DNA of 64,000 nt from Dehalococcoidia bacterium (GTDB lineage: Bacteria > Chloroflexota > Dehalococcoidia > GIF9 > AB-539-J10), in NCBI GenBank assembly GCA_034414555.1, contig DAOUMA010000008.1:78560-142559 (forward strand), written 5' to 3'. This document shows positions 42,065-45,821 of the stretch, one piece after another. Numbering within the stretch: the first letter of the stretch is position 1; each line of letters begins with the position of its first letter. Under the pieces are notes generated by a model, which was not told the DNA's origin, did no database searches, and saw only the letters and a program-made list of their open reading frames with translations. Both the position numbers and the translations under genes were made by a program.

Positions 42065-43057
42065 GTGAAGAAGCTTATCAAAGACTTTATCCACAGACCC
42101 GGGGTGCATTGTGAATCCACCGCGCTGAGAAATATCTATGAATTTTACGGTTTTAAATTCACTGAGCCAATGATTTTCGGGCTTGGTAGCGCTCTGGGTT
42201 TTGTCTATTGGAAGACGGAGTGGATGAAATTTCCCTTTATCGGCGGACGAATAAATGATTTGGATAGAAATCTGTGCGATAACCTCGGTGTGGGTTTAGA
42301 GATACACATGACATCAAGCAGAAGAAAAGCGTATCAATCGTTAAAAGAACTGATAAGCAGTGGTATTCCTGTAGCAATTCATGTCGATATGCCTTATTTA
42401 AAGTATCTTAAGCTATCAAAAGAAGCCCACTTTGGCGCACATGCTGTGGTTGTTGCTGGTTTAGATGAGGAAAGAGGCATCGCTTACATTGCCGATACTC
42501 AGTATCAAAAATTGCAGATTGCGACGCTTGGTGAGCTTGAGGAGGCAAGAGCATCCAAATTTGGTCCCTTTCCCGCACAGAATGCGTGGCTTGAGTTTAA
42601 ATTCCCTCTCAAGCTAAGTCCACTTGATGAGGCAATTAAAAGGGCGATTGTAAAGGCGGCGGATTCCATGTTAAATCCACCGATAAAAAATCTGGGCATA
42701 AAAGGCATTCGCCATTTTGGCAGTGAGATTGTCACGTGGCCTGAGGAATATCCGCCTCAAGAATTTGGCTGGGGCTATAAATTTGCATATGTTTATCTGG
42801 AGGAGGACGGCAGTGGTGGTTGTTGTTTTCGCTACCTGTTCTCGAGGTTTTTGAGGGAGGCGAGCGAGTGCATTAAAAGCGATGAGCTAAAGTCCTTAGG
42901 GGATAAATATGAGCAGGTAGGAAGAAGGTGGACAGAAGTAGCTCATTTAGTCCAGGATATTCCCAACGGCGGGAAGGTTGGTGATATTCAAAAATTGCTT
43001 TTTGAGATTGCCGATGAAGAAGAGGGAATATTCTCCGTCTTGAAGAAGTTTGGCTAG
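42065..43057 (+). CDS. BtrH N-terminal domain-like (papain-like fold) protein
   Basis: GVHCESTALRNIYEFYGF...GLGSALGFVY resembles the BtrH_N / DUF4872 family. Confidence 0.5.
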   Translation: MKKLIKDFIHRPGVHCESTALRNIYEFYGFKFTEPMIFGLGSALGFVYWKTEWMKFPFIGGRINDLDRNLCDNLGVGLEIHMTSSRRKAYQSLKELISSGIPVAIHVDMPYLKYLKLSKEAHFGAHAVVVAGLDEERGIAYIADTQYQKLQIATLGELEEARASKFGPFPAQNAWLEFKFPLKLSPLDEAIKRAIVKAADSMLNPPIKNLGIKGIRHFGSEIVTWPEEYPPQEFGWGYKFAYVYLEEDGSGGCCFRYLFSRFLREASECIKSDELKSLGDKYEQVGRRWTEVAHLVQDIPNGGKVGDIQKLLFEIADEEEGIFSVLKKFG

Positions 43058-43061
43058 AAAC

Positions 43062-43135
43062 TGGCTGGGGATCCAGGATTCGAACCTGGCCTAACTGATC
43101 CAGAGTCAGTCGTCCTACCGCTAGACTAATCCCCA
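43062..43135 (-). tRNA. tRNA-Gln (anticodon CUG), CCA encoded
   Basis: Manual fold of the reverse complement. 7-bp acceptor stem (U1:A72-type first pair), D stem GUCU/GGAC, anticodon stem ACUGA/UCAGU with loop CU-CUG-GA, T arm CCAGG-UUCGAAU-CCUGG, discriminator G, CCA. Confidence 0.85.
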
Positions 43136-43331
43136 ACGAGTTTCATTATAGCGAAATTAAAGCTAGTAGAGCAAGAAAGGTTACCTGCTCGTTCATTTCA
43201 CCCTCACCCTAGCTCTCTCCCATCGAGGGAGAGGGAAATAGTCATCGTCTGCCCTGTTGATTAATGCTTGTTTACAAAAGCAAATTTTGCTACAATAATT
43301 GTCGAAGTTATAGTAAATTGGGGAGGGCGAG

Positions 43332-43526
43332 ATGAGTGAAAACACAGATTTAAGGAAGATTTTAAAACCCTATTCTGACAAATGGGTTGCTCTTTCTGAA
43401 GATAGCAGCAAGGTTGTTGGGGCTGGTGATACGCCGGGGAGGGCTTTGGAGCAAGCGTCTTTATGTAGTGAGAAAAATCCTATCCTAACGAAAGTTCCAA
43501 AGCACTATGACACTTACATATTGTGA
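43332..43526 (+). CDS. DUF5678-like small protein
   Basis: 64 aa. ...YSDKWVALSEDSSKVVGAGDTP... Its stop overlaps the start of the following aspartyl protease gene. Confidence 0.5.
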   Translation: MSENTDLRKILKPYSDKWVALSEDSSKVVGAGDTPGRALEQASLCSEKNPILTKVPKHYDTYIL

Positions 43527-43966
43527 GTATTCACTTTAAACTTGATTATCGCAAGTTTCCCGCAGAACCTTGTAAAGCATTCCCCCGGCGCCGAAGTGCT
43601 TCCAGACCAGTGGTGCCTGTCTCCCTGATAAATAAGGATAAGAGAGTCCGTTATCTCGCGATTATTGATTCTGGGGCTGATTTTTGTATTTTCCATGCTG
43701 AGCTTGGTGCGCAAATAGACTTAGAAGTCAAATCAGGCACGGAACTCACTTTTTTCGGCATCGGAGGTATTCAACAAACTGCCTACTTCCATCATATAGG
43801 AATGGAGGTGGGAGGGTACGAATTTCCCTGTTATGCAGGTTTTTCCTATGACCTAAAGAGCTTGCCTTATGGCATATTGGGCCAAGTTGGCTTCTTCAAT
43901 CTCTTTAGAGTTCAGTTCAACTATGAAAAGCAAAGAATTGAGCTCTGGCGTGCAGAGCGAAGCTAG
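43523..43966 (+). CDS. Retropepsin-like (clan AA) aspartyl protease
   Basis: IDSGAD catalytic D-S-G-A motif. 147 aa. Confidence 0.6.
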   Translation: MSIHFKLDYRKFPAEPCKAFPRRRSASRPVVPVSLINKDKRVRYLAIIDSGADFCIFHAELGAQIDLEVKSGTELTFFGIGGIQQTAYFHHIGMEVGGYEFPCYAGFSYDLKSLPYGILGQVGFFNLFRVQFNYEKQRIELWRAERS

Positions 43967-44264
43967 GGTTTTGGTGACCCTCTTAGCCCACTCTTTTCAT
44001 AGTATCTGCAAAACTTGATTTATAACCTCCTGGGTTTTCATATCTACGATAGCTATAGATATTTCCCCGTATTCTAAATACAAAAATAATAAGAGTAACA
44101 TCATTGCTAGCTAAGAAAACATGCGATAAAACCGAAATCAGGGTTGCAGTTGTGTGAGCCTACCTACTAATAAACAATGAATTCCGCTCGGGGGGCTTTG
44201 TATCACAAATGCCCTCTGTGTCAAAAGTCAGGTGGTTGTATAAAAAGTGTTATCGAACAGAATC

Positions 44265-44783: not shown

Positions 44784-45122
44784 CGCTTACCCCCTTTAAC
44801 ATTTAATGGCTTTGCTTCTAAAGTACCTTCTGCTCCAAAAGTCGTTATCAGACTTCAACTGAAACGTCATTCAATTCTTTCAAGTACTGGATTAGAGTAT
44901 CTCTCATTGCATAAGCTTGGTGATATTTATTCGCCAATTCTTTTTGTTTATCCACATCTGGGAGAACATTAACTCCATTCCCCTTACTTGTCAACTCAAT
45001 ATCAATATCTTTGGGTTTTCTTTTCTGGCAACTAGGATATAGACCGATGCTTTCAAAAATCCTACAAGTCTTCTATTTGAGCCTGGGCGGGAGTATAATT
45101 GACTTAACAGCGGGGTGAAGTT

Positions 45123-45713
45123 ATGCCATTTTGTTCTAATTGTGGAAACGAAATACAAGAAAGCATGAAGTTTTGTCCAGAATGCGGTCATAGGCGTGCC
45201 GCTGAGGGAAAGGAGCCAGAAGAGATATTGGGGCTGGATGAAGTAAAGAGGATAGCGAAGGAATACGTTCGGTGTGAAGAGAATATAGGAGATGTGGAGG
45301 TCGAAGGTGCTGTGCCTTGCTCCCGAGAAGGGCAGCTTGTGTGGGTGGTGCAGGGAAAAGTAAGGAAACACACTGTTGACCCGAAACCCTGGCAGGCCTG
45401 GCCGGTTGGTGTAGTGGAAGAGCGCCCTTTCACCGTCCAGGTCTCTGATAAAGATGGGAAGATAACTGATTATAAGCCAGGTGATTGGATAAGGAAGAAT
45501 GCAGAGCAAGCTCCATCGGAGAGTTCTTCCTGTGATACGATACTGGTTGACCCTGAACCATATCCATTTAGCGAGCCCGAGACAATTAGTGATATACGAC
45601 TGAAAGATGCCAAGAGGAGGAACGAAGAAGCTGATGCTGAACTCAAAAGAGAAATCGCAAAGGACATCAGGGATAAGAGAGGAATGAGAGGGGGCTGGGG
45701 ACTGCCTTTCTAA
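45123..45713 (+). CDS. Zinc-ribbon domain protein
   Basis: N-terminal CSNCGNEI...CPECGHR double CxxC. 196 aa. Preferred over the low-complexity 323-aa antisense ORF. Confidence 0.55.
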   Translation: MPFCSNCGNEIQESMKFCPECGHRRAAEGKEPEEILGLDEVKRIAKEYVRCEENIGDVEVEGAVPCSREGQLVWVVQGKVRKHTVDPKPWQAWPVGVVEERPFTVQVSDKDGKITDYKPGDWIRKNAEQAPSESSSCDTILVDPEPYPFSEPETISDIRLKDAKRRNEEADAELKREIAKDIRDKRGMRGGWGLPF

Positions 45714-45821
45714 GTTTTCTAGTCTCTGGGATTGCGAGAATTGCCTCTTAATAAAGCAACTTGAGAAGGGTAAATAACCAACAGATATACCAATAGCCCA
45801 GTGGTGTGGAGAAGAAAGACA

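Follow-up and report, generated by a model that had tools for sequence, protein, structure and literature searches.

A DUF5678 protein and a retropepsin-like aspartic protease form a conserved two-gene cassette, a possible toxin-antitoxin-like module, in Chloroflexota and Patescibacteria

What is the role of a small gene whose end overlaps the start of a gene for a retropepsin-like protease? We address this question for a gene pair in a 64,000-nucleotide stretch of a Dehalococcoidia bacterium contig (DAOUMA010000008.1), referred to below as the window. The original prediction described the pair as a protease possibly held in check by a small DUF5678 partner, in the manner of a toxin-antitoxin module or a proteolytic switch, at the tRNA-proximal edge of an island.

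The gene pair and its two proteins

Both open reading frames were confirmed at the predicted positions on the forward strand: the small gene, of the DUF5678 family, at 43332-43526 (64 aa, ATG start) and the protease gene at 43523-43966 (147 aa, GTG start). A direct reading of the sequence places a Shine-Dalgarno motif, GGAGG (43322-43326, forward strand), 5 bases 5' of the ATG of the small gene, and the GTG of the protease over the TGA of the small gene in a 4-nt GTGA start/stop overlap (43523-43526, forward strand), which bears out the predicted translational coupling. Of 81 related junctions, at least 45 show an (A/G)TGA overlap, and the others range from −35 to +17 nt. A consensus scan found a promoter-like TTTACA-17-AATAAT at 43271-43299 (forward strand, 10/12 matching bases), 33 nt 5' of the small gene, which is to be taken as a plausible position only, because the region contains no more sites of this kind than chance would give. 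The block TTGTTTACAAAAG...TACAATAAT at this site is kept in the related contigs L098-L101. We saw no conserved operator palindrome, GCAAATTTTGC of the window promoter region being absent from relatives at ~80% identity. Three further candidates around the pair were rejected: a 17-nt imperfect inverted repeat (43198-43214 and 43961-43977, 82% complementary), set aside because 6.6 kb of sequence would yield seeds of that length at random; a 3' non-coding element (44128-44193), found only in the closest relatives (6/176 loci) and giving no structure signal (z −0.43); and a 35-aa minus-strand open reading frame at ~44001-44108, noticed by eye, which falls in a non-conserved part of the alignment.

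The product of the downstream gene is a retropepsin-type aspartic protease, soluble and built of a single lobe, whose active-site motif is intact. Residues 48-53 read I-D-S-G-A-D (43664-43681), and the catalytic loop D49-S50-G51-A52-D53 (43667-43681, forward strand) aligns with DTGAD of the HIV-1 protease; 79/79 family members share D, S, G and the second D, and 78/79 have the A. The flap tip F77-F-G-I-G-G-I83 (43751-43771, forward strand) aligns with MIGGIGGF of the same enzyme, keeps G79 in 78 of the 79 members and lies in a beta hairpin predicted by the structural model at residues 73-96. Family conservation marks the hydrophobic-hydrophobic-Gly motif I118-L-G-Q-V-G-F-F125 (43874-43897, forward strand), an element of the pepsin-like lobe, in which G120, Q121 and F125 occur in 79/79, F124 in 78/79 and G123 in 77/79 members. 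Selection on the active site is strict, with DSG-D, G120 and Q121 all invariant (79/79 members). The two proteins were modelled separately, the protease as a monomer, and the predicted protease fold matches solved retropepsins, with both the Gly-rich flap and the hydrophobic-hydrophobic-Gly motif in the model, so the claim of a free-standing retropepsin-fold protease with DSGA stands, as does the presence of its remaining structural elements. No second catalytic Asp is expected within the chain, because in the retropepsin fold it is supplied by a second subunit; from this fold we infer that the protease must homodimerise, with two DSGA loops building one active site.

Assignment to peptidase families by profile succeeded in part: fold and motif are of the retropepsin type, but the window protease scores below the cut-offs of Pfam RVP (PF00077, 17.5 bits against 20.7) and Asp_protease_2 (PF13650, 21.1 bits against 24.3). 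Many homologues at 50-70% identity have a precomputed PF13650 match, and since they pass where the window protein does not, the family lies at the edge of the PF13650 model. When the PDB was searched by sequence with the profiles of the two families, nothing significant was returned, and a search of PHROGs gave no match to the protease.

The family has features of its own. Cys55 is present in 79/79 members and His90 in 78/79, position 58 is His or Asp, and the N-terminus carries a conserved extension of ~25 residues. Classic retropepsins lack Cys55, His90 and His/Asp58, and the window protease has Gln where the retroviral G-R-N/D motif has Arg. The retroviral proteases (HIV-1, FIV, EIAV, RSV, HTLV; MEROPS A2) are excised from polyproteins, whereas the window protease is encoded by a free-standing gene. 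Ddi1 is a eukaryotic protein with ubiquitin-like and ubiquitin-associated domains; the RVP domain of Ddi1/Ddi2 (MEROPS A28) lacks an operon partner, and we saw no ubiquitin system here. In Rickettsia conorii, APRc forms the soluble part of a protein embedded in the membrane, and a small partner gene is lacking. The sequence of APRc (ApRick; PDB 5c9b, 5c9f) is 11% identical to that of the window protease, which, unlike APRc, is soluble, carries the N-terminal extension and always has a DUF5678 gene 5' of it.

The predicted family of the small protein was correct: its match to Pfam DUF5678 (PF18929) reaches 32.3 bits (E 8.8e-8), above the curated gathering cut-off of 23.2, and spans profile positions 2-48 of 49. 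Homologues of the small protein form 1459 clusters at 50% identity, and relatives have precomputed PF18929 matches. The best-conserved stretch is the extended, Pro-flanked segment P50-I-L-T-K/R-V-P56; the whole C-terminal tail is conserved and extended (P-I-L-T-K/R-V-P...Y-x-I/G), and is predicted to be unstructured. The best PHROGs match to the small protein was non-significant (E 0.39), and no relevant NCBIfam model matched.

Pairing and asymmetric loss

We found 325 protease homologues. A DUF5678 gene lies directly 5' of the protease in 80/80 informative loci from Chloroflexota and Patescibacteria, and at every protease match with upstream DNA (80 independent genome loci) this upstream open reading frame is full-length and on the same strand, which confirms the expectation that the two genes co-occur elsewhere. 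The sole exception, L033, is a protease match at a contig end, where the upstream region is cut off; the contig of locus L043 carries a second copy of the pair, likewise with intact pairing. Such adjacency is far beyond chance. In one cluster (P0094) the small protein and the protease are fused in frame. The distance matrices of the two proteins are correlated (Mantel r 0.77, reached by 0/999 permutations), and no third conserved gene was found at the pair loci. The pair is a self-contained, co-inherited two-gene cassette, in which the small protein is linked to the protease by translational coupling and accompanies it wherever it occurs. This compact unit comes from almost wholly uncultivated lineages (candidate phyla radiation, Dehalococcoidia), and even without a toxin-antitoxin role such strict pairing marks it out as a system of protease and partner.

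An apparent "ClpP" neighbour cluster was dismissed, as it consists mostly of antisense open reading frames overlapping the small gene. We also calculated inter-protein covariation (mutual information with APC; 152 pairs, Neff 85): the highest scores between the two proteins are no different from the highest within them, and the protease N-terminal extension occurs in 9/20 top pairs, which is a hint only, the covariation being confounded by subfamily structure and underpowered.

A census from the DUF5678 side gives a different picture of the partnership. It covered 80 metagenome loci, 75 of them informative, and found 64 intact pairs; the protease is frameshifted or stop-interrupted beside an intact small gene in 5/75 loci and absent despite room in 6/75. 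A disrupted or missing protease in 11/75 loci (~15%) compares with a partnerless protease in 0/80 (Fisher p 2e-4), an asymmetry that covers the Chloroflexota-type subfamily (alignment A8) used for the DUF5678-side search and that compares two sets sampled differently, the protease set being ranked by match quality, with frameshifts in metagenome contigs that may be assembly errors. L146, L149, L156 and L162 have orphan small genes that share 92-100% identity with that of L141, where the protease is retained, and the orphan of L107 adjoins a gene pair whose sequences, read by eye, resemble a RelE/HigB toxin and an XRE-type antitoxin. A further orphan, 73% identical to the window small protein, sits more than 20 kb from any protease in a phage-like element, whose genes are densely packed and run in one direction, with PHROG matches to a tail fibre, three exonucleases, an HNH endonuclease and phrog_874. 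By analogy, this orphan may follow the pattern of phages that carry antitoxin-like counter-measures.

That the protease is never partnerless while the partner is sometimes alone fits an antitoxin-like neutraliser, and together with the phage-like orphan this asymmetry gives indirect support to a protease restrained by its small partner. Our leading explanation, which we hold tentatively and at less than even confidence, is that the small protein would be the cognate, antitoxin-like neutraliser of the protease. By binding to the dimer, the small partner would keep the protease inactive; if the partner disappeared through loss, competition or degradation, as might happen under stress or during phage infection, the freed protease would cut proteins of the cell or of the invader and bring about growth arrest. 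The C-terminal tail of the small protein and the 25-residue N-terminal extension of the protease may, speculatively, be the contact elements. We favour this reading because the pairing is obligate, the coupling conserved, the decay asymmetric, one orphan carried by a phage-like element and the active site under strict selection, and also because there is no conserved third gene, the distance matrices are correlated, the placement is patchy and variable, and the B proteins of two candidate systems from PADLOC match the protease family (see below). To our knowledge, no aspartic-protease toxin has been described in toxin-antitoxin biology, and an obligatory activator or chaperone would likewise be expected to accompany the protease always, which counts against the neutraliser.

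The same strict co-occurrence and coupling fit equally well a protease with a dedicated substrate or adaptor, i.e. a non-toxic proteolytic switch or maturation pair, in which the small protein would either be cleaved to give an active fragment or deliver substrates to the protease. The gene arrangement has precedents: in Bacillus, spoIIGA, which encodes a retropepsin-like aspartic protease, lies beside the gene of its substrate pro-sigma-E in the spoIIGA/sigE operon, and the gene of the small adaptor ClpS lies directly 5' of that of its protease partner, clpA. The P50-P56 segment, the best conserved of the small protein, extended and Pro-flanked, resembles what we take to be the extended hydrophobic sites, including X-Pro, that retropepsins cut; the tail around it is predicted to be unstructured, and in one clade the cassette is syntenic with groES-groEL. 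A substrate without a role of its own would not, however, be expected to survive intact as an orphan, still 92-100% identical, once the protease is gone, and its lone carriage by a phage-like element would be unexpected. Moreover, no cleavage product or downstream effector could be identified, and no third gene is conserved. We consider a substrate or adaptor somewhat unlikely.

Relation to toxin-antitoxin and candidate defence systems

The neutraliser reading draws on several likenesses to type II toxin-antitoxin modules: two short genes that run in the same direction and overlap by 4 nt, the small one leading, a patchy spread with variable position and occasional multiple copies, and a downstream gene that is never alone, beside orphan upstream genes and decayed downstream genes. 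The small protein, in contrast to type II antitoxins, has no RHH, HTH, AbrB or Phd/YefM-type fold that we could see.

The original prediction also held that such pairs are sporadically reported in prokaryotes, and here it gains no support: we found no published report, and the only precedent consists of weakly similar candidates in PADLOC. In the literature, DUF5678 appeared only in an unrelated context, nothing was found on PDC-M52 or PDC-M08 by name, and no publication was found that links a retropepsin to toxin-antitoxin or anti-phage systems, an aspartyl protease to Patescibacteria, or PF13650 to prokaryotes. The candidates, PDC-M52 and PDC-M08, were identified in RefSeq genomes by Payne et al. 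(bioRxiv 10.1101/2024.01.29.577857), who defined them by their location inside loci of BREX, DISARM or type I RM systems. Each comprises two genes, and its B protein is a homologue of the window protease family: PDC-M52B matches 23/26 members (best E 1.6e-7) and PDC-M08B 15/26, and the window protease itself matches PDC-M52B with E 3.1e-5 (21.6 bits) and PDC-M08B with E 0.0099 (13.9 bits). On the A side, PDC-M52A matches neither the window small protein nor any of 47 relatives, and PDC-M08A does not match the window small protein and finds 2/47 relatives, weakly (E 0.008). As A and B are not both matched, the window pair belongs, by sequence criteria, to neither system. The window-type cassette occurs in Chloroflexota and Patescibacteria and, unlike PDC-M52 and PDC-M08, does not lie beside defence genes.

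These matches raise the prospect of an abortive-infection-type anti-phage system related to PDC-M52 and PDC-M08, in which a phage cue would free the protease to destroy host or phage proteins; it is a special case of the neutraliser explanation. Besides the B matches, the two weak PDC-M08A matches and the defence loci by which the candidates are defined (bioRxiv 10.1101/2024.01.29.577857), it can draw on the orphan partner gene in the phage-like element and on a window flank that differs between strains. Yet PDC-M52 and PDC-M08 are themselves predicted candidates, the window B match is weak and the A component has none. The flanking genes of related loci (n=150) are mostly housekeeping and show no enrichment of defence genes, and known defence genes were not found beside the window pair. 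We regard this anti-phage form as unlikely.

For the broader neutraliser explanation, too, the housekeeping neighbourhoods without defence enrichment count against a toxin-antitoxin role, as does the scarcity on mobile elements: PLSDB plasmids gave no match to either protein, INPHARED phages none to the protease, and IMG/VR a single contig among 2.9 million, which carries the complete pair. We know of no prokaryotic conflict system with aspartic-protease effector chemistry. The combined proposal of a new toxin-antitoxin or abortive-infection class with an aspartic-protease effector, widespread in Patescibacteria and Chloroflexota, with the phage orphan DUF5678 as counter-defence and Cys55, His/Asp58 and His90 as a regulatory metal site, is possible but doubtful. 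If the neutraliser reading is true, aspartic proteases of the HIV-protease fold would join the effectors of bacterial toxin-antitoxin and defence systems, DUF5678, a domain with ~1,500 sequence clusters, would gain a function, and the small protein would be a natural protein inhibitor of a retropepsin.

Genomic setting of the cassette

A third candidate role follows the neighbourhoods. In one Gottesmanbacteria clade the cassette lies directly 3' of groES-groEL in six related loci with stable synteny, and groESL is found within 0.3-4.6 kb of the cassette in three more loci, with a more divergent GroEL. The groES-groEL synteny looks vertical and housekeeping-like, which is a further point against the toxin-antitoxin reading. 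With the mostly housekeeping neighbours and the strict purifying selection at the active site, it would suit a proteostasis factor of reduced genomes, a cytosolic aspartic protease with a small regulatory or assembly subunit acting in quality control. Such a housekeeping function sits poorly with the very patchy distribution (164 matches among 185,579 species genomes), with neighbours and location that differ between lineages, with the two copies on the L043 contig and with the protease being pseudogenised or deleted in ~15% of DUF5678 loci, and we judge it quite improbable.

Finally, the placement of the pair at the tRNA-proximal edge of an island is borne out in part. The gene for tRNA-Gln(CTG) (43062-43135, minus strand) lies 196 nt 5' of the small gene, GC falls from ~0.49 to ~0.41 between 43 and 49 kb, and the flank is not the same in all strains: a comparison with a contig that is 97.7% identical over 42918-44193 shows extra DNA in the window at 44194-~45008 and 45111-45806. 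The marks of integration are missing, as no integrase or recombinase domain was found in the open reading frames scanned over 43-49 kb and no att-like direct repeat of the tRNA end was detected, no repeat family including 43062-43135. Islands normally integrate on the 3' side of a tRNA gene. Here the minus-strand orientation of the tRNA turns its 3' end (43062) away from the pair, which sits on the 5' side. Elsewhere, a tRNA or tmRNA gene occurs within ~500 bp in ~7/60 loci, against 3-4 expected by our own rough estimate, and in most loci the cassette is at non-tRNA sites without flanking repeats. The idea that a genomic island integrated at tRNA-Gln carries the pair as cargo at its edge thus has very little probability in our view. 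Both the pair and the tRNA are kept in the close relative L098, and only the DNA to their right varies, which places the pair beside a variable region, not demonstrably inserted with it.

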